The notes under the pieces were generated by a model. That model ran no database searches. It worked only from the letters and a program-made list of their open reading frames with translations, and was not told where the DNA came from. 46,242 bases of DNA from an uncultured Phycisphaeraceae bacterium (GTDB lineage Bacteria; Planctomycetota; Phycisphaerae; Phycisphaerales; Phycisphaeraceae), in assembly GCA_964431205.1 (NCBI GenBank), contig CAYSIX010000001.1, positions 1-46,242 on the forward strand, written 5' to 3'. The position numbers and the translations under genes are program-made. This document shows positions 5,780 to 40,543 of this stretch, piece by piece (position 1 is the stretch's first letter; each line of letters starts with the position of its first letter).

Positions 5780-5828
5780 GCGAGCACGCGACGAACCCCC
5801 GCCGCGCCCCGCATCACAGTTCCTCGAG

Positions 5829-6935
5829 ATGAAGGACCCCGCACCACTCGACGCTTTGACTCCCAATCCGGCCAGCATAGCCGAAGTGGACCCGCATGAC
5901 TGCGGCGCACCGGGCCCGCTGAACCGACGCCGCGCCGCGCTGACCCAGACCGAGCACTTTTCCCTCGCCCCTTGGCCTGATGGACACCGCTGGGCCTACT
6001 CAATTACGTTTGACGAGGCGCTGGCTGACCTGCATCGATTCGCCGTACCTCTGCTCGCCGAGCACGAGGTCCCCGGCCACCTCGAGGTGGTCGTCAGCCA
6101 GATCGGCCGGATGCGTGAAATCGGCGACTCGAGCTACAACGGCATGCGGCACATGTCCGCCGAAGAGCTCCGCGAGATGCTGGACGCGGGATGGGGCGTC
6201 GGCAACCACAGCTGGTCTCACCGGATTGTCAACGCACAGACGTGTGAGCTCGAGCTCGGCCACGCCAAGGCCGTGCTGGAGCAAACGATCGGTCAGCGCG
6301 TCACCGTCTACTGTGCGCCCGGATCGAACGCCAACCTGAACGATGCGGCGATCGACGCCTGTCGCGCGTTCGGCTACCTCGGCGCGATGAGCATAACCGA
6401 TGCCCTGAACTGGCCGAACAGCGAGGACCTGCTCTGGATCAATCGAACGTTCCTGCATGATCACGGCTACGGTCCGTTCTTCTCCGCGTTCGACCCCTAC
6501 CGAAACATCCTGTACGCGCAACGGGACAGCGGATGGTTGATTGACTACCTGCATTGTCCTCTGGAACAACCCATTCATCCCCAAAAGGATTGCTCGGCGA
6601 ATCAACTGGAGCGTCGCCTCGCGGCGATCCGCGCGATCGGCGGCGATGAGGTTTGGTGCGCGCGGGTGGAAGACGCCGTTGAGTACCGGTATGTGTTGCG
6701 TCACGCCCACGTCGAGTCGCTCGGGCCGGCGTCCTACCGCCTGTCGCTTCGAAGCCTCCCCACCGAGGTATCGTCTCGGCGGCTCACGCTGCTGACCGAA
6801 TCGCGTGACGCCGTGGTCGAGATCAACGGGCGGCCGACGCGGGTGAGCCGGCGTTCCGGGGGCGTTGCCTGGATCACGTTGGACTTGAGCGAGCCGTTGA
6901 TCGTTCGATTCGCCTCAGAGACGCTGAACCTATGA
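5829..6935 (+). CDS. Polysaccharide deacetylase (CE4/NodB-like)
   Basis: ORF 5763..6935. The track start (TTG 5763) overlaps the upstream gene, so ATG 5829 is preferred but uncertain. NodB motifs present: SITFDE (TFDD-like) and GNHSWSH (HSxxH). Confidence 0.7.
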   Translation: MKDPAPLDALTPNPASIAEVDPHDCGAPGPLNRRRAALTQTEHFSLAPWPDGHRWAYSITFDEALADLHRFAVPLLAEHEVPGHLEVVVSQIGRMREIGDSSYNGMRHMSAEELREMLDAGWGVGNHSWSHRIVNAQTCELELGHAKAVLEQTIGQRVTVYCAPGSNANLNDAAIDACRAFGYLGAMSITDALNWPNSEDLLWINRTFLHDHGYGPFFSAFDPYRNILYAQRDSGWLIDYLHCPLEQPIHPQKDCSANQLERRLAAIRAIGGDEVWCARVEDAVEYRYVLRHAHVESLGPASYRLSLRSLPTEVSSRRLTLLTESRDAVVEINGRPTRVSRRSGGVAWITLDLSEPLIVRFASETLNL

Positions 6936-7880: not shown

Positions 7881-8819
7881 TCACGCCATCGCGGCCAGGC
7901 GCGCTTCTCGATACGCCGACAAGTACGCGCTGCCGTCTTCACGCGACGCACGCTGCGGGTTCGCGAACAGGTCCTGCAGCTCGACGGCCACCCCATCGCG
8001 CTCCCGCGAGGTCAACGCGGCGATGCCTAGAAGCTCCGGTAGCAGCCAGCGGTCCGGCGTCATCGGCGCATGATCCGTCTGCCCGGCCAGGAATGGCAGC
8101 ACCGCGCTCAACGCGCTTCGGTGCAGTTGATCGTTCGACATTACGACAAACGTGTGAAACCGTTTATCCGTCGTGAGCGCATAGTAGAAGGGCAGCTTGG
8201 CGCGCGCCGGGCCGATCACGACTACCGCCGCCGTCTCGTCGGCGAACTCCACCAGAATCCGATCCTGCCCCTTCGTCCCCAGGTGCGTCACGCGGACGGG
8301 GTCCGAGGGAACGATGGCGACCAACCCGCTCAGCGCGTGCACGCCGTAGCCGAAGCGATCGACGCCGCAACCTGCCAGCACCGTGTGAATCCGCTCCCCC
8401 GAGGCGTCCAGCTCAGTTCGGCACACCCGCACCTCATCGGCGAACCGGATCGAGGACCCCCCCGAGACCCGTGCGCCCGACTCGACGAGTTGCCTGAGCG
8501 AGATCAGGTGATCGACCCGCCCCGCGACCGGCTTATCCAGAAACACGGACCGGCCGGCATCGAGGAACGGCCGGGCACGGTCCACGTGCGTGTCCCAGTT
8601 CGCGCCGCAAACCAACGCGCAGTCGACCAGCTCTGCGCATTGATCGAGCCTCTCGGCCACGTGGGGTATGTCGTGCTCAGCCGCGAACGACTCCGCGTAG
8701 CCCTCGGGATACACGTCGCCCGAGTCATAAACGCACACGACCTCGTGGCCCAGGTCCCGCAGGATCGGAACCCACCGACCGGGGTGTGATGTGTCCAGGT
8801 CTACAAATCCAACACGCAT
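7881..8819 (-). CDS. Gfo/Idh/MocA-like oxidoreductase with degenerate dinucleotide loop
   Basis: 312 aa. AAGGAAGG lies 8 nt upstream of the ATG. VFLDKP corresponds to the family EKP motif. The N-terminus MRVGFVDLDTSHPG lacks a clean GxGxxG. Confidence 0.5.
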   Translation of the reverse strand: MRVGFVDLDTSHPGRWVPILRDLGHEVVCVYDSGDVYPEGYAESFAAEHDIPHVAERLDQCAELVDCALVCGANWDTHVDRARPFLDAGRSVFLDKPVAGRVDHLISLRQLVESGARVSGGSSIRFADEVRVCRTELDASGERIHTVLAGCGVDRFGYGVHALSGLVAIVPSDPVRVTHLGTKGQDRILVEFADETAAVVVIGPARAKLPFYYALTTDKRFHTFVVMSNDQLHRSALSAVLPFLAGQTDHAPMTPDRWLLPELLGIAALTSRERDGVAVELQDLFANPQRASREDGSAYLSAYREARLAAMA

Positions 8820-8847: not shown

Positions 8848-10107
8848 CTATCGCCGATGCCGCTTGGCGACCGTGGCGACGATCTCCACCGCCGTCGCCA
8901 CGTCCTGCTCTGTGTACTTTTCGCAGAACGACGCCCAGCGGATCATGTGCTCGATGTATGCCGAGGCGTTGGGACAGTCCTCGCGCACGTAGCGATGTTG
9001 GCCCGTCGCCGGCGGCGAGGAGTACGGCCACTCGCCTCGCTCGGCACGCTCGCTCAGAAACGGAAGCGCCGCCGGCATCAGGTAATACCGGCACGTGCCG
9101 ATCTTGGGAATGCCCGCCTCGGCGCACTCCTCGGCGAACTGGTCGGCGTCGCAGCGGAACCGCTCCGGATCGATGCGGAAACTGGCCATCCAGCACGAGT
9201 ACCGCTCGGTGTGGTCCGGGATCGTCGGGGGAAGGATGCCCGGGATCTTGCCCAACTCATCGATCATCAGGCGGATCATGCGGTCGCGCTGCGTCACGTT
9301 CGCCTCGGCGTCCTCGAGCTGCGCGATAGTGACCGCCGCCGACACCTGCGGAAGCCGGTGCGCAAAGCCCTGGTGCGTGTGAACCCGGCCGAAGCGCGGC
9401 TTCATCTGCCCGCCCCGGCTGTGCCCGATGAACCGCGCAAAGTCCGCGAAGCCCTCGTCGTCTGTCACCAGCGCCCCGGCGATGTCCGACCCGATCGTCT
9501 TCTCGGAGTCGAAGGAGAAGCACGCGGCATCGGCGAGCGTCCCGGCCAGCCGCCCCTTGTAGATCCCGAAAGCGGACTGACAGACGTCTTCGATCACGAA
9601 CAGCCCGCGATCACGCGCCAGCTCCATCACCGGATCCATGTCGATGAACAGGCCCGTCATGTGGACGCAGATGATCGCGCGGGTGCGAGTGGTGAGCTTT
9701 GCCTCGATCGTCCGGGCGCTGATGTTCACGTTGTCCGGCTCCGTGTCGGCGAAGACCGGGATCAGACCGAGTTCGATCAACCCCGTGATCGTGCCGTAGT
9801 CGGTGATGCAGCTGACGATCACCTCGTCGCCCGGCTCGAGCCGAAGCGCCGCGGCCGCCATCTTCATCGCCGGGTTGCACCCCGGAGAGGCGACGCAGTG
9901 TTTCCGGCCGAGCATCCCAGCCAGTTTCTGCTCCAACCGACCGGACATGTTGATCGCCAGCCCGGCGTCCACCACCTCGGACAGGTACTTCATCGTGTTC
10001 TTGCCCATCACACGCGGGAATGGGATCGGCAGGCGCCCTTCCTCGCCCGCCAGCGCCGCCGCGCCGAACTTCGCCGCGCCGAACGATGCGGCCTCGAGCT
10101 TTGTCAT
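8848..10107 (-). CDS. DegT/DnrJ/EryC1/StrS-family PLP-dependent aminotransferase
   Basis: 419 aa. Family blocks: GDEVIVSCITDYGTITGLIELGLIPVFADTEPD, HMTGLFIDMDPVMELARDRGLFVIEDVCQS, and Schiff-base lysine context ACFSFDSEKTIG. AAGGAAG RBS upstream. Confidence 0.75.
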   Translation of the reverse strand: MTKLEAASFGAAKFGAAALAGEEGRLPIPFPRVMGKNTMKYLSEVVDAGLAINMSGRLEQKLAGMLGRKHCVASPGCNPAMKMAAAALRLEPGDEVIVSCITDYGTITGLIELGLIPVFADTEPDNVNISARTIEAKLTTRTRAIICVHMTGLFIDMDPVMELARDRGLFVIEDVCQSAFGIYKGRLAGTLADAACFSFDSEKTIGSDIAGALVTDDEGFADFARFIGHSRGGQMKPRFGRVHTHQGFAHRLPQVSAAVTIAQLEDAEANVTQRDRMIRLMIDELGKIPGILPPTIPDHTERYSCWMASFRIDPERFRCDADQFAEECAEAGIPKIGTCRYYLMPAALPFLSERAERGEWPYSSPPATGQHRYVREDCPNASAYIEHMIRWASFCEKYTEQDVATAVEIVATVAKRHRR

Positions 10108-10189: not shown

Positions 10190-11035
10190 TCACCCCTTCA
10201 CGGCCCCTGCCGCGATCCCCCGCTGTATGAACCGTTGCAGACATACGTAGATCACGATCATCGGCACCACCATGATCACCAGCGCCGCGAACGCCGTGCC
10301 CCACTGGCTGTTGTTGCTCGCCGACAGCGTCACGTTCGCCAACGCCAACGGCAGCGTCTGTACCCGCTCGACGTCCGCGTTCGACAGCAGCATGAATGCC
10401 AGAAAGTACTCGCTCCACGTCGCGAGGAACGAGAAGATCGCCACGGTCGCCAGCGCTGACCGGCCCAGCGGAACCACCACGTGCCAGAACACCTGCCAAT
10501 GGCTGGCGCCGTCAATGAACGCCGCCTCCTCGAGACTCCGCGGCAGTCCGCGGAAGAAACCAGATAACACCAAAACCCCGAATGGCAGGCCGAACCCCAC
10601 GTACGCGAGGATTAGCCCAACCCGCGTGCCCAGCAGCCCCGTGTCCCGGAAATGGAAGAACAGTGGCACGACCGCGAGCTGGACCGGTATCATCAGCCCC
10701 GCCACGAAAAGCGCGCCGATCGCTGCGCGGCCGGGCAGACAGAACCGCGTCAGGGCGAACGCCGCCATGGCCGACAACAGTGTCGTCACGATCACGACCG
10801 CCGTGTTGATCACGACGCTGTTGACAAACGCCATGCCGATACCCCCACCCCCCCAAGCTTGGCGGTAGTTCGACCAATGCAGATCGCTCAGCCGGGGAAG
10901 CCCGAATGGCGAAAAGAAGATGTTCTGGTTCGACTTGAGGCTCGAAAGAAACAGCCACAGCATCGGCAGAACCACCGACAGACCAAACCCGATCAGGATC
11001 ACGGCTCCCAGCCACGTCATCGGCCGACGAATCAT
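10190..11035 (-). CDS. Carbohydrate ABC transporter permease (MalG-type)
   Basis: ORF 10190..11251. Start moved to ATG 11035 (MIRRPMTWLGAVILIGFGL). The upstream part of the ORF is Arg/Ala-rich and overlaps the neighbouring gene. Multi-TM protein with EAA loop SLEEAAFIDGASHWQVFWHVVVPL. Confidence 0.85.
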   Translation of the reverse strand: MIRRPMTWLGAVILIGFGLSVVLPMLWLFLSSLKSNQNIFFSPFGLPRLSDLHWSNYRQAWGGGGIGMAFVNSVVINTAVVIVTTLLSAMAAFALTRFCLPGRAAIGALFVAGLMIPVQLAVVPLFFHFRDTGLLGTRVGLILAYVGFGLPFGVLVLSGFFRGLPRSLEEAAFIDGASHWQVFWHVVVPLGRSALATVAIFSFLATWSEYFLAFMLLSNADVERVQTLPLALANVTLSASNNSQWGTAFAALVIMVVPMIVIYVCLQRFIQRGIAAGAVKG

Positions 11036-11064
11036 GACCCCGAGCGTGGTGGCCGCACCGCTGC

Positions 11065-13623
11065 TCACGCGTGCACCTCCTCCCCCCGCATCACGCGAAA
11101 CGACAGCATCGACAGCCCGAACGTCATCACGAACAGAAGCACGGCCAGCGCGGCCGCTTCGCCCACCCTCAGCTCGAAGAACATGGTCTGCACCAGCCGC
11201 GTCCCGATAACGTGCGACTGCTCGCCCGGGCGTTGATCGGTCAGCAGCCACACCACCTCGAACGTCTTCATGCTCATAATGAGCAGAAACACGACGACGA
11301 TCGTGATCATGTGCCGGATCATTGGCACCGTGACCGACCAGAACTGACGGGTCCGACCCGCGCCGTCGAGGTCGGCGGCCTCATACAGGCTCTTGGGGAT
11401 CTCGCTCATCGCCGCCAGGAATAGCAGCATGTTGAACCCCACGGTCATCCAGATCAGGATCGGCAGGATGGACCAGTACAGCATGCGCTGCGAAAGCCAC
11501 GGAAACCCGTCGAACCGCTCCAGCCACGCGCCCCATGACGCGACCGAGCCCCCGAGGTAGCCGACGCCCGCCCCGTCCAGCATGGCCGCGAACCCGCTGA
11601 CCCATTGGCCGAGCATGACCAGTATCGCGTTGATCGGCCCGCTCTGCGGGTCGTACAGGTGTGTCCACAGCAGCGCCGCCGCGACACCGCCCAGAAAGTT
11701 CGGGAACAGCAACACGACACGCAACACATGCGCGCCGACGATGCCCCGAAGGATGAGCACCGCGAACGCCAGCGACAGCGGCACCACGCAGAGTGGGACC
11801 AGCACCGCGATGAACAGATTGTTGACCAAAGCGCTCCAGAACCCGCTGCTCTCCAGCAGCAGCCGACGAAAGTGGGTCAGCCCGTACCACGCGGCGTCGC
11901 CCAGCCCGTTCCACCGAACAAACGCCCACCGAAATGCATGCAACGATGGCATCAGGACGATCAGCACATACACCAGCGCCGCCGGCCCGATGAACATGGC
12001 CACCCCACGGAAGCCGAGCCTTTGCGTAGTCCCCCGATGCACGACGTCGGCTCGGCTCGCCGAGCGGCGCGACCAACGGACTTGGCCGAGCACCGACCGG
12101 ACGATCCACAGCATGCCCACTACCGTCACGGCCAAGAACGCCGCCGCCCGCCACGGGTGCTTGACCTGCACCAGCGTGGGGTCGGCACGCCGCTGGCGGA
12201 GCATGTCCGCGGCGGCCTCGAGCTCGGCCGCGATCTGACGCGGCGTCTTGCGCAGCTCCAGCAGGTCCTCCCGCGCGTTGCTCCACGCCTGCAGCATCTC
12301 CGGGGCGGCATCCGTCGACGAACCGTACGTTTCACGTGCCGCTCGCACCATCGGCAACAACGACTCGATGTCCGGGTCCAGGCCCTCGTTGGCGCCCCGC
12401 GTCGCGACCAGCGTCTGCTTCGCCACGGCGAACCGGTTCGCCTGCTCACGCGATGTTAGAAACCGTAAAAAGTCCACCGCCGCCTCAGGCGCCGCGCCGT
12501 CACGAAACACAAAGAACTGCGCTTGGTACGTCTTGAGCGCCGTCGGATCGCCCACACCTTCCTCGAAGACCGGCAGCGGGAACGACCCAAGCCGAAAGTC
12601 CTCCGGAATGACGTCCGACATCTCTGATTTCAACCACGACCCGTTGAAGATCATCGCGGCCTGGCCCAGGAAGAACTGTGCCTGGGCCTCGATGTGCCCC
12701 TGACTCATCGCGCCGGGCTGAAAATAGTCGCGCGACAGGTGCTGGACGACCTCGAACGCCCGGATCATCGCCGGATGGTTGAACGCCCCGGGCTCCAGGT
12801 CGATCTGAGCCTGATACGCCTCGGCGCCAGCCAGGCTGTAGAACGCGGACTCGTAAATCGTCGACGCGTAGTGCGTGCGACGACCCGGGAAGGCGATTGG
12901 GGCGACGCCGGCCCGCTTCAGGCGTTCACAAGTCTCAAAGAACTCCTCCCACGTGCGCGGCGGCTCCAGGCCGTGCTCTTTAAAGATCCGTTGGTTGTAC
13001 CAGACGGCGTACACGGCATAAGCCACGGGGATCGCGTATACCTTGCCCTGGTGCCGGAACCCATCGAGGCTGCCGGGCAGAAACGTTTCCCGCCAAGTCT
13101 GATCTCCCTCCCAGTTGGGGCCCTCGAGGTACTCATCGAACGACAGCAGGTGCCCGCTCTCGATCAACGCCCAAGGCGTGCGAACGGCGTCGGTCACGTC
13201 GGGGATCGATCCGGCGAGCACCCGGATCTGGACCTTGTCCATCATCACCGGATCGCCGTACAACCGCACTTCGACGCCGGGACGGACCGCCTCGTATGCG
13301 CGGGCGGCACGCAGGTAGCCATCGATCCCATACCCCCCGTCATAGAATGGCGCATCGACCACGACGCTCCTATCCGGCCGAGCCGGCTCGGGCGGCGCGA
13401 GCGAAGTCGCCGACGCCCCGCGGGGAATCGTCACCAGCAGGATGGACACGCCGCACAACCAACTCGATGACACGGCCGCTTGCCAAGGCCGCCGGCGTCG
13501 CAAACATCTCGGACGGGCTGCGGTCATGGACTTCCCGAGGCGTCGCACAGACTCTCGTGGCCTGACAAGATCCAAGCCTCTCCAACCAGGCGACGCGATC
13601 CACTTCTTCATCGCCATGACCAC
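11065..13623 (-). CDS. Fusion protein: family-1 extracellular solute-binding domain + MalF-type ABC permease
   Basis: Single 852-aa ORF.
- N-terminal basic region plus hydrophobic anchor (AAVSSSWLCGVSILLVTI).
- aa ~85-500 resemble sugar binding proteins (YAIPVAYAVYAVWYNQRIFKEHGLEPPRTWEEFFETCERLKRAGVAPIAF; FNGSWLKSEM).
- An extra TM helix (AAAFLAVTVVGMLWIV) and a basic loop follow.
- Then a permease core with EAA loop LYEAADLDGAGRTRQFWSVTVPMI.
Start is GTG 13623 or ATG 13617/13611, that is 4-16 nt after the DUF1559 stop. Confidence 0.8.
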   Translation of the reverse strand: MVMAMKKWIASPGWRGLDLVRPRESVRRLGKSMTAARPRCLRRRRPWQAAVSSSWLCGVSILLVTIPRGASATSLAPPEPARPDRSVVVDAPFYDGGYGIDGYLRAARAYEAVRPGVEVRLYGDPVMMDKVQIRVLAGSIPDVTDAVRTPWALIESGHLLSFDEYLEGPNWEGDQTWRETFLPGSLDGFRHQGKVYAIPVAYAVYAVWYNQRIFKEHGLEPPRTWEEFFETCERLKRAGVAPIAFPGRRTHYASTIYESAFYSLAGAEAYQAQIDLEPGAFNHPAMIRAFEVVQHLSRDYFQPGAMSQGHIEAQAQFFLGQAAMIFNGSWLKSEMSDVIPEDFRLGSFPLPVFEEGVGDPTALKTYQAQFFVFRDGAAPEAAVDFLRFLTSREQANRFAVAKQTLVATRGANEGLDPDIESLLPMVRAARETYGSSTDAAPEMLQAWSNAREDLLELRKTPRQIAAELEAAADMLRQRRADPTLVQVKHPWRAAAFLAVTVVGMLWIVRSVLGQVRWSRRSASRADVVHRGTTQRLGFRGVAMFIGPAALVYVLIVLMPSLHAFRWAFVRWNGLGDAAWYGLTHFRRLLLESSGFWSALVNNLFIAVLVPLCVVPLSLAFAVLILRGIVGAHVLRVVLLFPNFLGGVAAALLWTHLYDPQSGPINAILVMLGQWVSGFAAMLDGAGVGYLGGSVASWGAWLERFDGFPWLSQRMLYWSILPILIWMTVGFNMLLFLAAMSEIPKSLYEAADLDGAGRTRQFWSVTVPMIRHMITIVVVFLLIMSMKTFEVVWLLTDQRPGEQSHVIGTRLVQTMFFELRVGEAAALAVLLFVMTFGLSMLSFRVMRGEEVHA

Positions 13624-13627
13624 GGGC

Positions 13628-14443
13628 TCAATTGTACGGGTCCCACTTGTTGTTGTCGGGTTGCTCGAACGCGTCGGTCAGCTCATCCTCGCCGTAGGGG
13701 TTGTAACCCTGCGTCTCGACACCGTCGTCGATCTTGACCGCCGTCACGTGCGAATCCGCCCACAACGTATTCACCGCGCCCGAGTGTCGTGCGCCGGGCA
13801 TGAGGCGGTTATTGAGGCCCCACACCCACGTGGCGTTCACAATGTACCACCCCGAGGAGTTTGGTTCCGGGAACGCCTCCGAGGTCAGTTGCCAGGTGTC
13901 GAGCATCGAGATCGTCGAGCTGGCATTACGCACCTCTTCGACCTTGGCCGGCGTGTTCGCCGGCCGAAGCCCCTTCGGGTCACCCTGGTACCCCCATAGC
14001 CGGTCTTCGTTCGCCCCGTAGTTGATCGTGCGCCAGAGCGAATGCCGTAGATCAAACTCCGATCCACTCACCGGCAAGTCCGCGTAGGGATCCACGGGAG
14101 CGTCGGGACAGTTGTAAGCCTCTGTGGAGCTGGTGTACTGCTGCTTGATAAACATCGCCGGCCAGTAGGGAATGTCGCTCAGGCTGACACCACTTCCGAC
14201 GGGCAGGACCTGGCCGGAGGGCGGAAACGAGTTGTCGTAGTCCTGATGGTACAGGGCCACGACCAGTCCCAACTGCCGAATGTTGGACATGCAGTTGACG
14301 TTTCGGGCCGCCTGGCGGGACGCCCCCAGCGCCGGCAACAGGATCCCGATCAGGATGGCAATGATCGAGATGACAACGAGCAACTCGATGAGAGTAAACG
14401 CGGAACGAATTGGGCCATGCCGTGAAACAGGATAATCAGACAT
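13628..14443 (-). CDS. Prepilin-type N-terminal cleavage/methylation domain protein, DUF1559 (H-X9-DG) family
   Basis: Start at ATG 14443 (AAGGTG 6 nt upstream); the track ORF begins at GTG 14452. [58 protein letters not shown] is a class III (pilin-like) signal. The C-terminal [16 protein letters not shown] is the H-X9-D(G) motif, here D-S. Confidence 0.85.
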
Positions 14444-14600
14444 CAGGCGCACCTTTTCTGGAAGCTCGTGGAGTAAGTGAAACCATTGTCACGATCTGGT
14501 GGTACGTCACGACGGCGTGAAGGCGCCACACTCCCGATCGCGGGAAAGTGCATTCGCCGCCAAACGCGTGGGCGCTGACCGCCATCCGCCGCTCCCCGCG

Positions 14601-15704
14601 TCAACCGGTCCGACGGCGGCGGCGGATCGCGAGGCCGGCCACGGTCAGCAGAAAGGAAACGGCCCCAGCGGGCTCGGGTACAGCCGCCCCCTCGACACCT
14701 GTCCCGAAGTTCGTCTGCCACAAGCCCAGGTCGAACGCGTCCACGTCTCCATCGCCGTCAAAATCAGCGCTGAGGCTCTCGCCCGTCTCACCGAATTGCG
14801 TCTGCCAAATGCCCAGGTCGAAGGCGTCCACGTCGCCGTCCCCATCGGCGTCGCCCGGCACCACGTCTGCGGAGGCGACATTAATGTTGTCGATCCACAC
14901 CTCGGCCGTGAGCGACGCGTCGGTGGAGTACCCAAGACGATTGACCCCGTCCACCGTGCCGTTCATCGGGAGGTCGGCGGTTGTGCCATCGGTCAGCTTG
15001 AAGAGCACGGGCTCGCCGTCGATGAACAGCGAGTAAAGGCCCTCTCCTGCGTCCCACTCCACTGTGAGCTCGAACGGGCGGTTGATCACGTCATTTATGA
15101 AATCCGTCGGCATGGCTCCGGTCGTGGTCAGCCCCGTCCAGATGTCGCGGATATGGAAAAACCCCGTGTCCGCGACCAGAAAGTCGAACCAGATCGTGGG
15201 CGATGGACTGTTTACGTTGATCAACGGCGGCTCTTCTCCACCGATGACGACCTGCAGGTTGTTGTAAAAAAACCCGTCGGTGTGAACGGGCAAAGTGCGG
15301 TCTGGCAGCCTTGGATCCGCCAGGAAGAGATCCATCGTTGCTTGCCCGACGGGGATCGAGTCAGGCTCACCGCTGGCGCCCTCGGTGAAGGCGATCTGGG
15401 CGTTCGCCGAACCGGTGTGATCCTTGATGAACAGGCTCTGATTGTCAGGTCCGAATGGGTCCGCGAACTCACTCTCCGAGTCGGCTACAATAACCTGCGT
15501 CGCGAAGTTCAGAAACGGAAGGTTCTGGGGATCCGAGATGTTGAACGCGCCCGCCGGCGCTGAGCCCACCTCGTCCGCCTCGAAGTCCTCGTGAATGATG
15601 TTGCCGTGCACCGGCGCGGCGCCGAAGATCAGCGTTACGACGGCGACCGAGCGACCAACGCCACGTTGGGCGAAGTGCTTGCGAGTCCTCTCTTGCAACG
15701 ACAT
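14601..15704 (-). CDS. PEP-CTERM-anchored exoprotein: ConA/LamG-like beta-sandwich domain + double dockerin-like cassette
   Basis: 367 aa. AAGGAGAA RBS precedes ATG 15704 and a signal peptide is present. The core domain is shared with the 16257..17171 paralog (IHEDFEAD.VGSAP ... GLYSL.IDGEPVLFKLTDGTTA.LPMNGTVDGVNR). Two DxDxDGxVDxxD repeats (GDADGDGDVDAFDLGIWQTQFG, DFDGDGDVDAFDLGLWQTNFG). C-terminal VPEPAGAVSFLLTVAGLAIRRRRRTG is a PEP-CTERM sorting signal. Confidence 0.85.
   Translation of the reverse strand: MSLQERTRKHFAQRGVGRSVAVVTLIFGAAPVHGNIIHEDFEADEVGSAPAGAFNISDPQNLPFLNFATQVIVADSESEFADPFGPDNQSLFIKDHTGSANAQIAFTEGASGEPDSIPVGQATMDLFLADPRLPDRTLPVHTDGFFYNNLQVVIGGEEPPLINVNSPSPTIWFDFLVADTGFFHIRDIWTGLTTTGAMPTDFINDVINRPFELTVEWDAGEGLYSLFIDGEPVLFKLTDGTTADLPMNGTVDGVNRLGYSTDASLTAEVWIDNINVASADVVPGDADGDGDVDAFDLGIWQTQFGETGESLSADFDGDGDVDAFDLGLWQTNFGTGVEGAAVPEPAGAVSFLLTVAGLAIRRRRRTG
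14703..14855 (-). repeat. Dockerin-like double EF-hand cassette, copy 1 of 3 (coding)
   Basis: A 51-codon block (GDADGDGDVDAFDLG.WQT.FG...DFD.DGDVD.FDLGLWQTNFG) recurs at 19243..19395 (+) and 41423..41575 (+). Most nucleotide positions are identical by eye. Confidence 0.85.
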
Positions 15705-15790
15705 GGGTTTCTCCTTTGAAGGCGGTGAAAGCGGTTGTGGAAGCGGTTCAGCGGTCCCGTCAGCAGACCGAAATTAGCGGATCGGTAATA

Positions 15791-15819
15791 ATTATGCGCC
15801 AGCGTCGCGACGTTGTCAA
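15791..15819 (-). promoter_or_regulatory. Sigma70-type promoter for the 14601..15704 gene
   Basis: Minus strand reads TTGACA (15819-15814), 17 nt, CATAAT (15796-15791), about 80 nt upstream of ATG 15704. The -10 and early leader (CATAATTATTACCGATCCGCTAAT) are homologous to the plus-strand promoter of the divergent paralog (CATCATTATTACCATACCGTTAAT). Confidence 0.6.
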
Positions 15820-15959
15820 GGGGCGGGTGCCGGCCGGTCTAAAACCCGGGCGGAGACGCCCAAGGAACGGATCGGCGTCCGGATATGCGCTAGCTTGATC
15901 GGAGCGCCGTTTCCCAGCCGTTCACGCTCTAGGACAGGGGGACGCATGGTCGCCCATAG

Positions 15960-16125
15960 CCAGGGTGAAGACATTTACTGACCGGCGACGCCAGCGCGTT
16001 CAGGGCGGACGTGATTCTGAGGGCGTGAGAGCCGTCCAACTGGAGACCAGAAATCTGAGGCCAACTTACTCATTTCGGGTCGTCGCGGCCCGTTGCATGA
16101 GAATCGGGTAATGTCTTCACCCTGG
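15960..16125. mobile_element. MITE-like non-autonomous element (166 bp) with 16-bp perfect terminal inverted repeats and 7-bp flanking direct repeat
   Basis: CCAGGGTGAAGACATT (15960-15975) and its exact reverse complement AATGTCTTCACCCTGG (16110-16125) bound a 134-nt ORF-less interior. Both outer flanks are CCCATAG in the same orientation (15953-15959 and 16126-16132). This is the pattern of a target-site duplication. Confidence 0.6.
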
Positions 16126-16141
16126 CCCATAGCACGACCAC

Positions 16142-16170
16142 TTGACAAGGCGGCTACGACACGTCATCAT
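16142..16170 (+). promoter_or_regulatory. Sigma70-type promoter for the 16257..17171 gene
   Basis: TTGACA (16142-16147), 17 nt, CATCAT (16165-16170), about 80 nt upstream of ATG 16257. Homologous to the minus-strand promoter at 15791-15819. The MITE-like element ends 16 nt (TSD 9 nt) upstream of the -35. Confidence 0.55.
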
Positions 16171-16256
16171 TATTACCATACCGTTAATAGCTGCCCGGTG
16201 ATCTTGGGTGGACCACGTTTGACCGGGCCGCAGCACCCGTGAGAGGAGATAGCAGC

Positions 16257-17171
16257 ATGTCCAAGAGAATTCGCCAAAACCGCTTTGTCCGCAGCCGATG
16301 GACCGCGTGCCTGACAGGTATCGCGAGCCTGAGCCTGATCGTGCCGACCACGACCGCCCAAGCCGACCTGATCCACGAGGACTTCGAGGCCGATACGGTG
16401 GGATCCGCGCCCTCGTCGGCCTTCGGCGTCTCAGATCCCCAGAACACGCCTGTCACCAACTTCGCCACGCAAGTGATCGTCGTCGATTCGGACAGCGAAT
16501 TCGCCGATCCATTCGGACCCGACAACCAGAGCCTGTTGATCAAGGACCACACCGGTTCGGCTCGATCTCAGGTCGCGTTTACCGAGGGCGCGAGCAACGA
16601 GCCGAGGTCGATCGCCACGGGACAGACGACCATGGACCTTTTTTTAGCTGATCCACGGCTACCGGACCGCACCATCCCGGTTCACACCGATGGGTTCTTC
16701 TACAACAACCTGCAAGTGATTATCGGTGGAGACACTCCTCCGCTGAGCAATGTCAACAGCGCATCGCCCACGATCTGGTTTGATTTTCTCGTCGCTGATA
16801 CAGGCTTCTTTCACATCCGTGACATCTGGACCGGGCTGACCACCAGAGGAGCGATGCCATCATCATTCATTGACACGGTTGTCGGAAGACCGTTTGAGCT
16901 GACGGTGGAGTGGGACGTTGAAGAGGGCCTGTATTCATTGCTCATCGACGGTGAGCCCGTTCTATTCAAACTTACCGACGGCACGACGGCCTCGCTTCCC
17001 ATGAACGGAACGGTGGACGGAGTCAATCGCGTCGGTTTCGGCACGGACAACTCGCTCACCGCCGAGGTGTGGGTCGACAACGTCAACCTCGTGCCGGAGC
17101 CCGGCGCCCTGGCGCTGACGCTCACGGTGGCGGCCGGAGCAATCGGCCGACGGACGCGCCGGATCGTCTAA
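16257..17171 (+). CDS. PEP-CTERM-anchored ConA/LamG-like exoprotein (paralog of 14601..15704 without the dockerin cassette)
   Basis: ORF 16239..17171. ATG 16257 is preferred (GAGAGGAG 8 nt upstream). Signal peptide ..SLSLIVPTTTAQA. High identity to the 14601..15704 product across the beta-sandwich domain. C-terminal VPEPGALALTLTVAAGAIGRRTRRIV. Confidence 0.85.
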   Translation: MSKRIRQNRFVRSRWTACLTGIASLSLIVPTTTAQADLIHEDFEADTVGSAPSSAFGVSDPQNTPVTNFATQVIVVDSDSEFADPFGPDNQSLLIKDHTGSARSQVAFTEGASNEPRSIATGQTTMDLFLADPRLPDRTIPVHTDGFFYNNLQVIIGGDTPPLSNVNSASPTIWFDFLVADTGFFHIRDIWTGLTTRGAMPSSFIDTVVGRPFELTVEWDVEEGLYSLLIDGEPVLFKLTDGTTASLPMNGTVDGVNRVGFGTDNSLTAEVWVDNVNLVPEPGALALTLTVAAGAIGRRTRRIV

Positions 17172-17216
17172 GGACCCATCGCTTGCTCTGTATGCGGTCT
17201 AGTTGCAGTTCCTTCG

Positions 17217-17258
17217 AGGGCGTTGCGCGGTGAGGGTCCGCCGCGCAACGCCCTTTTC
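17217..17258 (+). terminator. Strong hairpin + T-run (intrinsic terminator or attenuator) after the 16257..17171 gene
   Basis: AGGGCGTTGCGCGG (17217-17230), 10-nt loop, CCGCGCAACGCCCT (17241-17254), then TTTC. The 14-bp stem is perfect and GC-rich. Confidence 0.7.
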
Positions 17259-17280
17259 ACTCGACTCCAGGAGCAGCCCC

Positions 17281-19524
17281 TTGCAGGATCTGCAGCCACG
17301 GCTGATCGCTCCAACCCGCCGTCCTCGGCTCAATCACGACACGGTCGAGCGCGGCCCCGCCGCTCGCGATCGTCGCGTCGCCGTAACGGGCCTGCTGGCG
17401 GCGCTGGTCAGTGTCGTCGCGACGCTCGCTGTAACGAACGCCCAAGCCGACTCCGCCGTTCATCAACAGATCACCGACGAGGCGACGCTCTGGGCCGAAG
17501 ACCTCTATCAGCGTATGAACTGGTACGTGCCACTGATCCGCTTTTCGTCGACCGGGTCCGGCCCCAACGACCCGCGGTACGACGCCAAGCACCTCTACGA
17601 CATGAGCTATTACGACGAGGCCCGGCTCGTGCAGTTCCAGAACACGCGTGATCCGGCGATCGCCGACCAGTTGCTCACGGAGTTGGAGTTCGTCCTCGAC
17701 CTGCGGACCGGCGGGCCGCTGGACCCGTACCCGGACCCGCCCGAGACGTTGCGGACAGGGCCGACCGGGCCACGATGGGTCAGTTTCAATCGCTACTACA
17801 CCCAGGTGGCCAACCCGCCGCGGCACGCCTGGTTCGCCCACAACGCCCAGTACTTGTCCAACCACCTGCGCCTCATCGGCATGATCCGCAACGATTCAGA
17901 GTTGCACGCCGAGTTTGCCGACCGGATCGATTCGATCGTCCCGATCGCGGCGGAGATTCTCAATGGATTCGACCATGAGTTCCAGCACTACTCCGACGGC
18001 GTGCGCGGGCTCTACACCGACCCGTTCTACGCGTCACTTGGCGGAGGCACGTCCACTTATCCCGGTCTGCTGCCCTTGAACATGCAGTCGGCGGCGGGCT
18101 CGGCCTATCTGGGGCTCTACCAGGCCTCCGGTGAGGAGCAATATCGTGAACGCGCCGAGGCGCTGGCGCTGACGATGAAAAGCGATCTGGTCGCGTCCGG
18201 CGACCGGTATCTGATGGCCTACGGCCAGGACCAGCGTTACGCGGCCGGACGGGAGGACATAGGGCACGGCGCCGTCAGCATCGCCTTCATCGTCGAGGCC
18301 TACGAGGCGGGCCTGGTCTTCAACGACACGGACCTGGCGCGTCTGAGCAACACGCTGCGGGCGATGAAGAAGTCCAATGGCGAGTTCTCGTTCTTCCTCG
18401 ACGGGACGGACCACAGCGGTACCACGGGCGTCAATCCGGCGGGCCTGGCCAACCGCTGGCTCCGCCTGGCGTACTACGAACCTGAGCTACGCGCCGAGAT
18501 GTGGGACCATCTACACCCGTACTACGATACCAACAACAGCTCGTCCGCGGTGTACACGGCCCTGGCCATGGCCCACTACGCCGTCTCGGGCGAATCGCAT
18601 CGCCCTGAGCGGATGTTCGTCGACCGCTTTGACGGGCCGCAGATCAGCGCTCGTTGGCGGCGGCCGTCGGATGAGTCGCTCGATGTCTTCTGGGTCACCA
18701 GCGTTCAAGACGGAGCGCTTCTTGTTCGCGACGTTGTCGACAACGCGTCCTACCCCTCGAAGTGGGTAGGCCTGACGCGTAGTCGGGAAGTATCGCCGAT
18801 CGGATCCTGGTCCGTCGAGGTTGATCTGGAGTGGAACGCCGCCGAGGCCGGCTCAAACGCGCTCAACGTCGAGCACGCGTTTCTGGTGCAGTTGCTCGAC
18901 GACGAGGGCGACGTCTTCGCGTCCCTGGGCCTGGCGGACCTGTGGCCCGAGCAGACCGCGGGCAGGCAGTGGTCGCTCGCGGGCACCTCGAGCCGATCGG
19001 CCCACCCCGGCGAGCTGGATCAGGTCGGCCGGGCACTGCTTCAGATACGAAGCCTTGAAGACGAAGCGCGAACGGAGTTGTATTGGGATCAGACGATGCT
19101 CGCGGAGTGGGACGGCTACCATACACTGAGCGAGGTCCTGCTTGTTTTTGGCAAGCACTATCCGAGCCAGGGCAGCGCGAACATGGGCGATTTCACGATC
19201 CACCGCGTCGCCGTGAACGAGCTCGCGGCCCCCACCGTGCCCGGCGATGCCGACGGGGACGGCGACGTGGACGCGTTCGACCTGGGTATCTGGCAAACCG
19301 ATTTCGGAATGACCGGCGCGAGCCTGGCGGCCGACTTCGACGCGGACGGCGACGTCGACGGGTTCGATCTTGGCCTGTGGCAGACAAACTTCGGCCGTAG
19401 CGCCCAAGGCGTGACGGTGCCCGTGCCATCCGTCGGGGTGCTGATGGTGGTCAGCGCGCTGCTGGGTGTTGGTCGACAGGACCGGGCCATCGCCCGAGGC
19501 CGAATCGCTCACACGCAACGATGA
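17281..19524 (+). CDS. Large exoprotein of unknown function with C-terminal double dockerin-like cassette and degenerate PEP-CTERM tail
   Basis: ORF 17203..19524, but the hairpin at 17217-17258 lies in its 5' end. The first plausible start after the hairpin is TTG 17281 (AGGAG 9 nt upstream). Signal-like RDRRVAVTGLLAALVSVVATLAVTNAQA. Helix-rich central region, then a beta-rich region (FVDRFDGPQISARWRRP...). GDADGDGDVDAFDLGIWQTDFG / DFDADGDVDGFDLGLWQTNFG. The tail VPVPSVGVLMVVSALLGVGRQDR has VPVP instead of VPEP. Confidence 0.7.
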   Translation: MQDLQPRLIAPTRRPRLNHDTVERGPAARDRRVAVTGLLAALVSVVATLAVTNAQADSAVHQQITDEATLWAEDLYQRMNWYVPLIRFSSTGSGPNDPRYDAKHLYDMSYYDEARLVQFQNTRDPAIADQLLTELEFVLDLRTGGPLDPYPDPPETLRTGPTGPRWVSFNRYYTQVANPPRHAWFAHNAQYLSNHLRLIGMIRNDSELHAEFADRIDSIVPIAAEILNGFDHEFQHYSDGVRGLYTDPFYASLGGGTSTYPGLLPLNMQSAAGSAYLGLYQASGEEQYRERAEALALTMKSDLVASGDRYLMAYGQDQRYAAGREDIGHGAVSIAFIVEAYEAGLVFNDTDLARLSNTLRAMKKSNGEFSFFLDGTDHSGTTGVNPAGLANRWLRLAYYEPELRAEMWDHLHPYYDTNNSSSAVYTALAMAHYAVSGESHRPERMFVDRFDGPQISARWRRPSDESLDVFWVTSVQDGALLVRDVVDNASYPSKWVGLTRSREVSPIGSWSVEVDLEWNAAEAGSNALNVEHAFLVQLLDDEGDVFASLGLADLWPEQTAGRQWSLAGTSSRSAHPGELDQVGRALLQIRSLEDEARTELYWDQTMLAEWDGYHTLSEVLLVFGKHYPSQGSANMGDFTIHRVAVNELAAPTVPGDADGDGDVDAFDLGIWQTDFGMTGASLAADFDADGDVDGFDLGLWQTNFGRSAQGVTVPVPSVGVLMVVSALLGVGRQDRAIARGRIAHTQR
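19243..19395 (+). repeat. Dockerin-like double EF-hand cassette, copy 2 of 3 (coding)
   Basis: Same 51-codon block as 14703..14855 (-) and 41423..41575 (+). Confidence 0.85.
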
Positions 19525-38098: not shown

Positions 38099-38154
38099 CT
38101 TCAACATTGCAGTCGCTTGTAACCATTGTTCGCCCCCTGGCGGCGGGTTATGGT
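38099..38154 (+). promoter_or_regulatory. Promoter with conserved upstream motif (copy 1) for DUF1559 gene 38310..39158
   Basis: CTTCAACATTG (38099-38109), -35 TTGTTC (38126-38131), 17 nt, -10 TATGGT (38149-38154). GACC lies 10 nt upstream of the motif. The same register is found at 39392 and 44184. Predicted leader about 150 nt. Confidence 0.5.
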
Positions 38155-38309
38155 TGAACAAGTCAACTCGCGGACGACAGGTCATTCGACATGGCGGCTG
38201 AGGCTGATTCGAAGATTTCTCTGGTTTGCTGCCCCGTTCGTGTGGTTTCACCCGAATACGCGCCGCCGAAGCCTCACGGCGACGTGACCTGCCAAGGAGG
38301 CATTCGCTC

Positions 38310-39158: not shown

Positions 39159-39326
39159 CCGACCGGATCCGCCGTCTGATCTGTGGAGGATGTCGAGGGT
39201 GTCGCGTTCGCTGCGTGTTCGAACGAGCGACCTTCACGGTGGGGCGAATGCGATCGCGACCCAGCCGACCCAGAAACACACGGCGTGACGCCGGCAAAGG
39301 CCCCCACCGGTGAATCGGGATCGGAT

Positions 39327-39340
39327 CATAACGCGTTATG
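39327..39340. promoter_or_regulatory. Perfect 14-bp palindrome, candidate operator
   Basis: CATAACGCGTTATG is its own reverse complement. It lies 52 nt upstream of the conserved promoter motif of the second DUF1559 gene, in a locally AT-richer stretch. Confidence 0.35.
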
Positions 39341-39391
39341 AAACCTGACCATAGGTGTTTGACGGACGGGTTGCACGAGCGGACCGGAATC

Positions 39392-40471: not shown

Positions 40472-40543
40472 CTGATTGGACGTGACGTCTCATTTTTATG
40501 GCCTTTTCATCTCAGACGATGAGGAGGAAAGAAGGAGGAAAAC

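Follow-up and report, generated by a model that had tools for sequence, protein, structure and literature searches.

What does a gene for a type IV pilin-like protein do in front of a sugar ABC importer? In an uncultured Phycisphaeraceae bacterium, a DUF1559 gene and a gene for a PEP-CTERM exoprotein lie upstream of such an importer. A sequence-only reading of the locus had proposed that all three form one machine, in which a pilin-tethered DUF1559 protein captures substrate together with a surface PEP-CTERM 'lectin' and hands it over to the importer. Open reading frames and profile searches of the window, that is, the whole 46,242-nt stretch of DNA analysed, confirm the gene order given there, a string of six co-directional genes:

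14601-15704, minus strand: PEP-CTERM/dockerin-like exoprotein of 367 aa (TIGR02595, 17.7 bits against a cutoff of 16)
13628-14443, minus strand: type IV pilin-like protein with DUF1559 / H-X9-DG, starting at the ATG at 14443 (271 aa)
11065-13527, minus strand: CUT1 ABC importer subunit, a fusion of a signal/anchor segment, an NgcE-like solute-binding domain and a MalF-type permease domain
10190-11068, minus strand: second permease (MalG/UgpE-like), its GTG start overlapping the stop of the fusion (GTGA), with GGAGG before it
8848-10107, minus strand: DegT/DnrJ/EryC1-type sugar aminotransferase (PF01041 at 5e-60), co-directional and 82 nt after the second permease
7881-8819, minus strand: GFO/IDH/MocA-type oxidoreductase (PF01408), which closes the string

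The frame 11065-13623 had been read as a fusion of a binding protein and a permease, and its matches to SBP_bac_1 (1.9e-31) and BPD_transp_1 bear this out. The fused architecture is common to 144 homologs. The best match of its binding domain is NgcE (TIGR03851), with a score of 216 bits that lies under the equivalog cutoff of 399.65, so that its substrate can be assigned only approximately. NgcEFG and DasABC are CUT1 importers of Streptomyces for GlcNAc and chitobiose that share the MsiK ATPase. The importer resembles them in its two MalF/MalG-type permease domains, in an operon without an ATPase gene and in the NagA/NagB and deacetylase genes nearby; unlike in these systems, binding protein and first permease form one polypeptide, the NgcE cutoff is not reached, and DegT and GFO/IDH/MocA genes rather than classical nag genes follow the importer. 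Importers of the OpuA/GlnPQ type also carry a substrate-binding domain fused to the translocator. As in these, the covalent tether to the permease makes a separate binding-protein gene unnecessary, although the ABC subfamily is another one (CUT1) and the binding domain is N-terminal, behind the signal/anchor segment. The DUF1559 gene was said to occupy the position that in an uptake operon normally belongs to the binding protein; that position is not vacant, being taken by the domain fused to the permease.

The distance between the two genes also has to be revised. The longest frame of the fusion opens at a GTG at 13623, and the 4-nt gap reported earlier hinges on this codon. The ATG at 13527 is preceded by the SD-like motif GGGAAG and directly followed by a signal peptide, as in the homologs, and is the likely start; the gap is therefore probably about 100 nt. 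By contrast, the overlap of the second permease with the stop of the fusion, together with its GGAGG, suggests that these two genes are translationally coupled. Their pairing is kept in 7/7 distinct homolog loci.

The assignment of the upstream gene (longest frame 13628-14452) to DUF1559 holds. The protein scores above the curated cutoffs of PF07963 (N_methyl), TIGR02532, PF07596 and TIGR04294 (H-X9-DG motif), displays the N_methyl plus DUF1559 architecture of the PF07596/TIGR04294 family of Planctomycetes and groups with a Phycisphaerae-type subgroup of PF07596. It departs from the family norm in that the PF07596 match is limited to residues 44-82 and the motif reads H-X9-DS. With type IV pilins and T2SS pseudopilins (PilA4 of Thermus, geopilin, PilE1, GspG/GspH) it shares a class III signal peptide, in which 15 residues precede FTLIELL with Glu at +5, a long, hydrophobic helix (alpha1) and a small head made of a beta-sheet; the residue at -1 is Ala instead of the canonical Gly. 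AF2 predicts a 50-residue alpha1 helix and the head with a pLDDT of 86.6. The profile matches to type IV pilins and GspG (PilA4, E=1.6e-12; GspG, E=5.7e-5) are restricted to alpha1, the equivalog cutoffs of GspG and GspH are not reached, and Foldseek and PDB comparisons of the head revealed neither a structural match nor a carbohydrate-binding fold or motif. A further difference from pilin assembly operons is the occurrence of DUF1559 genes as tens of dispersed paralogs per genome (PMC8567305, PMC10632474). They constitute the largest paralog family of Planctomycetes, evenly spread and often flanked by signal-peptide genes, and their products are found in membrane fractions (PMC10632474, PMC8567305).

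A fold suited to ligand binding, as the hand-over proposal implied, is not what was obtained: the protein models confidently as type IV pilin-like, with no PBP fold and no profile similarity to solute-binding proteins. The DUF1559 protein as a substitute binding protein was rejected on the grounds of its pilin architecture, this lack of similarity and the binding domain already fused to the importer. The Pfam name of PF07596, 'SBP_bac_10', implies a solute-binding protein, of which the model and the profile comparison give no sign.

None of the seven distinct loci of fusion homologs, four of which are from PVC genomes, contains a DUF1559 gene within 8-10 kb, and the DUF1559 HMM matched nowhere in 125 kb; the closest cluster includes a Gemmatimonadaceae genome. 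Conversely, ABC binding-protein families do not appear among the best 25 of 86 Pfam families of 64 downstream neighbours of other DUF1559 genes, and a hydropathy screen for the six-helix build of importer-type permeases identified none (0/64, with an upper 95% bound of about 4.6% and little power for a weak preference, since sugar ABC importers are generally uncommon near these genes). The roughly 600 kb surrounding 109 DUF1559 genes contained no frame for a CUT1 binding protein/permease or for a family-5 (SBP_bac_5) binding protein; for other ABC-importer families the absence rests partly on custom profiles and the hydropathy screen. The gene caller and the signal-peptide test were crude but internally controlled. 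The anticipated enrichment of DUF1559 genes upstream of importers was thus not observed. The DUF1559 protein has no close ortholog in the databases (best identity 41%), so conservation was assessed at the family level. At that level, a functional association that arose recently in this lineage would be indistinguishable from an incidental neighbourhood.

Since the adjacency is absent in relatives and the importer possesses its own binding domain, the three genes probably share a pathway, not a machine. The reading to which we give somewhat better than even weight is a lineage-specific juxtaposition of the DUF1559 gene and the importer in a GlcNAc/amino-sugar island, in which the parts serve one pathway as separate machines. 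The amino-sugar setting is indicated by NgcE-like, NagA-like and NagB-like genes and deacetylases, found by profile searches of the window.

The promoter-like sites, all of them pattern matches, are as follows:

15791-15819, minus strand: near-consensus sigma-70-like site TTGACA-17-CATAAT (11/12), in front of the PEP-CTERM gene
13631-13659, minus strand: weak site CCGACA-17-TACAAT (9/12), within the DUF1559 coding sequence at its 3' end
16142-16170: site of the divergent exoprotein gene at 16239-17171 (plus strand)

The first is a candidate promoter of the entire minus-strand string, and a pattern scan of the two gaps flanking the DUF1559 gene detected no terminator-like sites. Co-orientation, the single strong site and the terminator-free gaps make co-expression of the DUF1559 gene with the importer plausible, and co-transcription might mean a closer functional tie; the weak site could provide independent transcription of the importer genes. 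Random shuffling of the window's own gene content placed a DUF1559 gene next to an ABC gene 44% of the time (P=0.44); within the window the adjacency does not exceed chance.

The first gene of the string encodes, behind a strong SD (AAGGAG) and an ATG, a signal-peptide-like segment, an orphan N-domain of 246 aa, two dockerin-like DxDxDG (Ca-loop) repeats and a PEP-CTERM anchor. Of its earlier description as a PEP-CTERM/dockerin LamG-like protein, the anchor and the dockerin-like repeats were recovered, the latter at 18.6 bits under the Dockerin_1 cutoff of 22.9 and with PDB dockerins at E about 1e-3. The LamG or lectin part is unsupported: the N-domain has no Pfam match at E<=5 and no PDB match, and AF2 modelled it with a pLDDT of 27. 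Related modules and further DUF1559 genes occur elsewhere in the window:

16239-17171, plus strand: divergent paralog of the exoprotein N-domain (73% identity); it carries a PEP-CTERM anchor but lacks dockerin-like repeats
17203-19524, plus strand: exported protein of 773 aa that shares the dockerin-like module (67% identity over 85 aa) and whose anchor is degenerate (VPVP)
38226-39158, plus strand: third DUF1559 prepilin-like gene (PF07963 and PF07596)
39626-40471, plus strand: second DUF1559 prepilin-like gene, with a PEP-CTERM gene 72 nt downstream
40544-41689, plus strand: PEP-CTERM/dockerin-like exoprotein; its C-terminal module and that of 14601-15704 have 86% identity

The recurrence of the DUF1559/PEP-CTERM pairing at 39626-41689 was confirmed by the domain profiles; the gene at 38226-39158 is an addition to the earlier reading. 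The N-domain of 40544-41689 is unrelated to that of 14601-15704, and the two pairs are not arranged in the same order.

Taken as a single capture and hand-over machine, the locus can claim its common strand, short gaps and one strong promoter-like site, the carbohydrate context and the second DUF1559/PEP-CTERM cluster, which lies on the same strand as an SBP_bac_5 gene and a few genes upstream of it. The association of DUF1559 genes elsewhere with sugar sensors and exported glycan-active proteins (see below) fits as well, as does the planctomycete 'fishing rod' hypothesis of dedicated pilin-like proteins for polysaccharide capture, with its dextran-binding fibres (PMC5394234; review PMC12078418). 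Against these stand the missing adjacency in relatives and its chance level in the window, the importer's own binding domain, a DUF1559 protein unlike binding proteins, an exoprotein N-domain without lectin signature, and a gap of about 100 nt with a weak internal promoter-like site in front of a fusion coupled instead to the second permease. We regard the single machine as very improbable and a physical hand-over from the DUF1559 protein to the importer as unlikely.

What does recur around DUF1559 genes is of another kind. Sugar sensors of the LacI/GntR/AraC types occur immediately upstream or in divergent orientation (10/15 regulators, p=1.7e-6), and the regulators have a mutual identity of at most 35%. 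Immediate neighbours look exported, glycoside hydrolases included, in 43% of cases vs 19% (p=1.2e-5). The regulator-linked cassettes include a GH10, a GH42/GH2-like and a LamG-like protein encoded immediately behind DUF1559, as well as a GH16 behind two tandem DUF1559 genes. Exported proteins of large size (GH10, GH42/GH2-like, LamG-like and one without a Pfam match) are co-directional and begin 21-67 nt after the DUF1559 gene. Both PEP-CTERM-like proteins of other loci adjoin a DUF1559 gene, and the three nearest relatives of the DUF1559 protein with readable context reside in amino-sugar loci (GH20, GH3/Amidase_3, GH114). The broad idea of DUF1559 proteins in carbohydrate acquisition therefore gains new support from the regulators, exported neighbours and amino-sugar loci, in contrast to the part of a hand-over component for an importer. 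The DUF1559 protein probably has its role in the cell envelope, alongside exported proteins active on glycans.

Two versions of such an envelope role can be distinguished. In one, each DUF1559 paralog would be a cargo-specific T2SS-type pseudopilin or minor pilin that recognises the adjacent exported protein, here the PEP-CTERM/dockerin-like protein, and helps to secrete it or display it on a fibre, and the importer would be an unrelated neighbour. The GspG/GspH- and pilin-like N-terminus, the name 'type II secretion system protein' given by NCBI to many relatives, the exported neighbours close behind DUF1559 genes, the two pairs in the window, the PEP-CTERM-like proteins of other loci and the hypervariable loops on a conserved scaffold of the family all suit this version, and flanking signal-peptide genes have been remarked upon (PMC8567305). 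The pairing in the window nevertheless does not exceed chance in shuffled gene order (two or more adjacencies, P=0.21), the two pairs differ in order, and the protein falls short of the GspG and GspH cutoffs. We know of no T2SS with dozens of cargo-dedicated pseudopilins, and PEP-CTERM proteins would be expected to take the Sec plus exosortase route. We consider this version doubtful.

In the other version, sugars would induce DUF1559 paralogs, each a substrate-specific subunit or tip of a retractile fibre, which bind polysaccharide directly and pull it into the periplasm; the paralog here would be specific for an amino-sugar polymer. Sugar-sensor adjacency, the amino-sugar loci of the nearest relatives and the variable head loops speak for it. 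So does the published proposal with its dextran-binding fibres, with which the sugar-sensor and glycoside-hydrolase neighbourhoods are compatible; these fibres are not known to be tied to DUF1559 or ABC importers (PMC5394234, PMC12078418). The head shows no carbohydrate-binding feature, the localisation to the membrane fraction in T. immobilis (PMC8567305) is neutral with respect to fibres, and direct glycan binding leaves the enrichment of exported neighbours unexplained. This version appears unlikely.

According to the favoured juxtaposition of separate machines, the fusion and the second permease would form a CUT1 unit of two genes, complete in itself and widely conserved. In the periplasm the membrane-tethered NgcE-like domain would capture an amino-sugar or oligosaccharide and pass it to the two permease domains, energised by an ATPase presumably encoded elsewhere, as in MsiK-type systems, and the imported sugar might then be processed by the DegT and GFO/IDH/MocA enzymes. 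The two front genes would represent a separate unit recurrent in PVC bacteria, a DUF1559 gene with an exported-protein gene, elsewhere usually under a LacI/GntR/AraC-type sensor and beside secreted glycoside hydrolases, that in this lineage came to lie upstream of the importer. A prepilin peptidase from another locus would most likely cut the class III (prepilin) signal peptide of the DUF1559 protein, and the protein would be built into a T2SS/T4P-type fibre; pilus, T2SS, prepilin-peptidase and exosortase genes were not detected in the window, as had been stated before. The variable head may work with the neighbouring exported protein, in its secretion or display, or with a polymer. An amino-sugar polymer would be the target of the outer steps, and its products would be imported in the inner step, in a pathway probably co-expressed. 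In the Sus-like loci of Bacteroidota, substrate-induced clusters combine a sensor or regulator with secreted glycoside hydrolases and a component at the surface or in the envelope. The likeness is conceptual: SusC/SusD homology is lacking here, the envelope part is pilin-like and uptake proceeds through an inner-membrane ABC system. The PEP-CTERM and DUF1559 genes have a GC content 4-6% below that of the importer and enzyme genes.

GC3 frame analysis and an ORF listing revealed one credible gene string at this site, on the minus strand; the plus-strand ORFs across the exoprotein, DUF1559 and fusion genes are the usual high-GC antisense artefacts. The genes of the string are:

15704-14601, minus strand: exoprotein of 367 aa (ORF) with PEP-CTERM and dockerin-like repeats
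14443-13628, minus strand: DUF1559 protein, 271 aa from the ATG (longest ORF from a GTG at 14452)
13623/13527-11065, minus strand: fusion protein, SBP_bac_1 + BPD_transp_1
11068-10190, minus strand: second permease, BPD_transp_1
10107-8848, minus strand: DegT, after the second permease
8819-7881, minus strand: GFO/IDH/MocA, after DegT

The sequence-only reading of this DNA had combined the first three genes into a module for substrate capture and uptake, an observation that was partly confirmed. Its domain calls hold with qualifications, Pfam and NCBIfam agreeing on the pilin-like and the PEP-CTERM genes.

Sequence and predicted fold alike mark the DUF1559 protein as type IV pilin-like, its head being specific to the family. 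The prepilin N-terminus was recognized above cutoff by TIGR02532 (24.9 bits vs 16.3) and PF07963 (24.4 vs 21.2). PF07596 (37.6 bits vs 23.3) aligned with residues 44-82 only and TIGR04294 (21.2 bits vs 19) with residues 219-240, where the actual motif is H223-X9-D233-S (H-X9-DS). The predicted cleavage site, between ...IRSA and FTLIELL, has Glu at +5 and Ala, not Gly, at -1; relatives in the alignment of the family (A2) have either G or A at this position. Prepilin cleavage of the protein is predicted with a reservation, given the Ala at -1. In the AF2 model (pLDDT 86.6, pTM 0.82, 58-sequence alignment) an extended alpha1 helix of 50 residues (21-71) is packed on an antiparallel beta-sheet head of four to five strands (145-148, 181-189, 216-219, 226-231, 236-240). 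The sole match of the model in a Foldseek comparison with the PDB was the alpha1 helix of PilA4; the head domain had no match in the PDB and no PBP chain was among the matches. A profile search of the PDB likewise yielded PilA4 (1.6e-12), geopilin, PilE1 and GspG (5.7e-5), all confined to alpha1, and the GspG equivalog TIGR01710 was not reached (29.1 bits vs 88.85, N-terminus only). The alignment falls into three zones. The N-terminus (residues 21-60) is invariant, the scaffold (C-P at 115-116, YG.N at 145-148, RH..N..W.D.H at 222-235) is conserved, and the loops (81-90, 121-130, 151-170, 191-200, 241-250) are hypervariable and rich in indels. Genes for a prepilin peptidase or an assembly ATPase/platform were not found in the window. 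Homology to binding proteins, which the Pfam name SBP_bac_10 would imply, was considered and rejected on the pilin architecture, the Foldseek result and an hhalign probability of 0.3% against the profile of the importer's binding domain; the name is only a label, and a misleading one.

The importer next to the DUF1559 gene brings its own binding domain. The 852-aa ORF of the fusion combines a family-1 solute-binding domain (SBP_bac_1, 1.9e-31) with a MalF-type permease domain; BPD_transp_1 occurs in the fusion and in 10190-11068, and the MalF/MalG/UgpA/UgpE-like matches place the pair among the CUT1 importers. The best match of the binding domain is NgcE (TIGR03851), the binding protein for GlcNAc/diacetylchitobiose, with a score of 216.1 bits that lies below the equivalog cutoff of 399.65, and the substrate is therefore assigned only approximately. 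The fused architecture is shared by 144 homologs (best 49% identity) from Phycisphaerae, Verrucomicrobiota and Armatimonadota, and from a Gemmatimonadaceae genome in the closest cluster (the P0002 cluster). The presence of this member from outside the PVC group among the closest relatives hints that the two-gene importer unit may have spread horizontally.

In the fusion homologs about 30 residues, a signal/anchor segment, precede the mature domain. The best candidate for the start is the ATG at 13527: GGGAAG stands ahead of it, and the protein then opens with RRRRPW, a hydrophobic stretch and GASA. The 765-aa database start (GTG at 13362) has a good SD but was rejected, as it loses the segment that all homologs keep. 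With the ATG at 13527 the gap between the DUF1559 and fusion genes, previously put at 4 nt, amounts to ~100 nt, and it includes a weak promoter-like site. On the other side, the GTG of the second permease overlaps the TGA stop of the fusion (GTGA, 11065-11068), with a GGAGG motif ahead, and this tight coupling is found in every homolog locus. An ABC_tran ATPase gene is present neither in the window nor adjoining the fusion-permease pair in 7 homolog loci; a shared ATPase is presumably encoded elsewhere. The DUF1559 gene had been seen as occupying the place of the binding-protein gene. Given the importer's own binding domain, the width of the gap and the coupling of fusion and permease, this premise fails.

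The adjacency of the two units was examined from both sides. Seven distinct fusion loci served for the reverse comparison: L001 from Mucisphaera, the metagenomic L081, L082 and L084, L169 from a Phycisphaeraceae, L170 from a Tepidisphaeraceae and L171 from a Verrucomicrobia genome. A profile search of genome contigs with the fusion alignment retrieved only L001 as a true ortholog and otherwise generic permease motifs, and the other 79 loci from this search served solely to train broad profiles of binding proteins and permeases. The fusion and the second permease are kept together in 7/7 loci. The gene upstream of the fusion encodes a Rieske, sulfatase, beta-helix, OmpA or PALP enzyme type of protein or is a small ORF, and the DUF1559 HMM found no match in the 125 kb of these loci.

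For the forward comparison, 80 metagenome loci around the nearest DUF1559 relatives and three loci from exact look-ups were collected; the DUF1559 protein of the window has no close ortholog (best relative 41% identical) among more than 7,000 family members at E<=1e-5. Genes were called with a home-made GC-frame heuristic validated on the window, and 112 DUF1559 genes were found. Their downstream neighbours were further DUF1559 genes in 20/86 cases. Of the remaining downstream neighbours, 64 lie outside the window; for these, no binding-protein family was among the best 25 of 86 Pfam families, and a hydropathy screen of the downstream neighbours revealed no six-helix build of an importer permease. 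The broad profiles, after iteration with 88 binding proteins and ~171 permeases, detected no CUT1 component in the ~600 kb that surround 109 DUF1559 genes, and SBP_bac_5 was likewise not detected there. The DUF1559-ABC adjacency is thus not enriched above chance: it is missing from 7/7 fusion loci, it occurs in 0/64 neighbours, and at least one such adjacency arises in 44% of trials when the window's 34 genes are shuffled, figures in which a young lineage-specific association would look the same as an incidental one and cannot be told apart from it. At least two DUF1559-PEP-CTERM adjacencies arise in 21% of these trials. The components of the locus are all members of known families, and there is nothing unusual in the adjacency as such; as it is unconserved, it offers no basis to annotate DUF1559 proteins as analogues of binding proteins. 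Physical capture of a substrate by the DUF1559 protein and its hand-over to the importer would agree with the gene order of the string; with the importer's own binding domain and the results from both sides, it is very unlikely.

The exoprotein carries a PEP-CTERM signal (TIGR02595, 17.7 bits vs a cutoff of 16), its PEP motif, transmembrane helix and basic tail being VPEPAGAVSFLLTVAGLAIRRRRRTG; an exosortase gene was not found within the window. PF00404 scored below its cutoff (18.6 bits vs 22.9), two DxDGDGDVDAFD repeats are visible and the profile of the exoprotein matched PDB dockerins (E=8.5e-4); "dockerin-like" is a fair description. The lectin assignment has no support. The N-domain (246 aa, residues 36-281), earlier called LamG-like, matched no Pfam family at E<=5, Laminin_G and LamG included, and no PDB sequence, and the AF2 model of the protein reached a pLDDT of 27 (6-sequence alignment). 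Its only five relatives are a small Pirellula group and a divergent paralog at 16239-17171 on the plus strand, whose N-domain is 73% identical and which has no dockerin-like repeats. In the 534 nt between the divergent paralogs (15705-16238) lie two sigma-70-like promoters close to the consensus:

15819-15791, minus strand: sigma-70-like promoter, 11/12 match
16142-16170, plus strand: sigma-70-like promoter, near-consensus pattern

The C-terminal module of the exoprotein, two DxDGDGDVDAFDLGxWQTxFG repeats followed by PEP-CTERM, occurs in the window at 14601-15704, 17203-19524 and 40544-41689 and, with 65-88% identity, in dozens of further proteins (P0243-P0279). The attached N-domains are mutually unrelated (GH10, GH16, peptidases, LamG and others), and the module looks like a surface-anchoring cassette shuffled within one genome or lineage.

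Around DUF1559 genes it is regulators and exported proteins that recur. Among 69 upstream neighbours, Pfam identified Peripla_BP_3 in 8, GntR in 6, LacI in 2 and AraC in 2. Across ~100 metagenomic loci, with genes called by the home-made caller, 10/15 regulators of the LacI/GntR/AraC type with PBP-like domains for sensing sugar lay directly upstream of a DUF1559 gene, well above expectation (516 called genes, hypergeometric P=1.7e-6):

L086, L087, L093, L103, L114, L139, L147, L162, L166, L172: loci with the regulator immediately upstream or divergent

Six of these ten pairs are co-directional and four divergent, with gaps of at most 273 nt and one overlap of 76 nt. No two of the regulators share more than 35% identity, and the link to DUF1559 therefore arose repeatedly. 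The parts consulted of published accounts of DUF1559 make no mention of such neighbours, and the association may be new. By a crude but internally controlled signal-peptide test, 43% of the immediate DUF1559 neighbours look exported, while for the remaining genes of these loci the share is 19% (OR 3.3, P=1.2e-5); this fits a remark published for T. immobilis (PMC8567305). In the regulator-linked cassettes the DUF1559 gene is directly followed by one for a GH10 xylanase-type, GH42/GH2-like or LamG-like protein and, in L139, a tandem DUF1559 pair by one for a GH16 protein. The cassettes, in which these large signal-peptide proteins are encoded co-directionally with DUF1559, are at:

L093, 10727-15238
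L162, 6427-8280
L139, 7549-10053
L114, 10652-13321

These loci look like minimal cassettes of a sensor, a pilin-like protein and an exported glycan-active protein. They bear on two further explanations of the DUF1559 protein, which, like hand-over, partly overlap the reading preferred below as specific versions of its role. A pseudopilin specific for one cargo would accord with the exported neighbours and is unlikely. Direct binding of glycans by a "fishing rod" would suit the hypervariable loops of the head, for which the PDB offered no match, and is a slightly less likely explanation still; pilin-like fishing rods for polysaccharide uptake have been postulated, with no proteins identified (PMC5394234, PMC12078418).

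A Pfam scan of the wider context (±4 genes, 122 proteins) gave GFO/IDH/MocA and these same regulators as the commonest families, as in the window, and no recurring ABC-importer family. Among the relatives whose context could be read, the three nearest each follow a GntR/PBP regulator in an amino-sugar locus:

L086: APH, GFO, GH114
L087: GH3, Amidase_3, SIS-domain protein
L172 (complete genome): GH20 hexosaminidase

By its gene content, the window itself is a predicted GlcNAc/amino-sugar catabolic island. Besides the NgcE-like importer it carries GFO/IDH/MocA genes, five in all, and two genes for DegT aminotransferases; Rfam identified no structured RNA in it. Its further genes of this context are:

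28011-28967, plus strand: NagA-like, amino-sugar island
27265-28014, plus strand: NagB-like, amino-sugar island
4583-5779, 5763-6935 and 21607-23499, plus strand: weak ROK/NagC-like regulator and two polysaccharide-deacetylase-type genes

Sugar sensors directly upstream, exported glycoside hydrolases immediately downstream or close by and the amino-sugar loci of the nearest relatives together suggest that the DUF1559 family takes part in inducible carbohydrate acquisition. To this extent the earlier interpretation gained ground, in its carbohydrate context; the surrogate binding protein, the lectin and the hand-over to the ABC importer did not survive. According to the parts consulted of the literature, no paralog family of planctomycete genomes is larger than DUF1559, with 68 copies in P. 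limnophila and ~91 in T. immobilis (PMC10632474, PMC8567305), and its function is not known (PMC10632474, PMC8567305, PMC4807772). The regulator-linked paralogs are concrete experimental handles on the family, and the locus offers a defined substrate class for one paralog of this large orphan group.

Starting from the observed anatomy, domain identities, conservation pattern and neighbourhood statistics, we lean slightly towards a reading in which the DUF1559 gene and that of the exported protein form a unit with an envelope role, linked to a self-contained importer at the level of the pathway. The promoter at 15819-15791 would drive the whole string, whose co-expression is plausible because no terminator-like site lies in the gaps. 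After export, the PEP-CTERM protein would be sorted by an exosortase whose gene lies elsewhere. The class III signal peptide of the DUF1559 protein would mediate its insertion; a prepilin peptidase, likewise encoded outside the window, would cleave the protein, which would be built into a fibre of the T2SS/T4P type, where its variable head may serve the secretion or display of the neighbouring exported protein or bind polymer. The tethered domain of the importer itself would bind periplasmic oligomers, their import being powered by an ATPase encoded elsewhere, and DegT and GFO/IDH/MocA would process the imported sugar.

A more far-reaching proposal, improbable when all its parts are taken together, regards DUF1559 proteins of Planctomycetota and Verrucomicrobiota as sugar-induced specificity subunits of pilus- or pseudopilus-based polysaccharide acquisition, a system that in function would resemble the Sus-like systems of Bacteroidota. 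The adjoining LacI/GntR/AraC sugar sensor would induce each paralog, which would act with the adjoining exported glycoside hydrolase or binding protein, either in the capture of polymer on the fibre or in secretion or display of the enzyme; in the window, a paralog specific for amino sugars would share a transcript with its PEP-CTERM partner and with the importer of the products. If this were so, the locus would represent a complete pathway from outside to inside and, with GlcNAc/chitin-like substrates, a defined test case for what the phylum's largest orphan family does.

A second DUF1559 cluster lies on the plus strand at 38226-46241 and comprises two DUF1559 genes, a PEP-CTERM/dockerin-like gene, GFO/IDH/MocA, a regulator of the XylR/AraC type with a PBP sensor, and a family-5 ABC binding-protein gene that runs off the end of the window. 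Each of the window's two DUF1559/PEP-CTERM pairs is thus followed, on its own strand, by an ABC binding-protein gene, which is adjacent in one case and four genes away in the other. The 30-nt motif CTTCAACATTGCnGnCGnTTGnAACnATTG occurs in exactly two copies in the window, at 38099-38128 and 39392-39421 (plus strand), with none expected by chance; the copies lie upstream of the two tandem DUF1559 genes, at distances of ~100 and 205 nt to the start of the respective ORF. An operator common to both clusters was not found, the motif being absent upstream of the minus-strand string; probably the motif serves a duplicated unit as a common promoter or operator. In the segment 13628-17171 the PEP-CTERM and DUF1559 genes have a GC content of 60.0-62.3% vs 65.4-66.3% for the importer and enzyme genes and a window mean of 65.9%; this difference of 4-6% is consistent with the joining of two units of different history.
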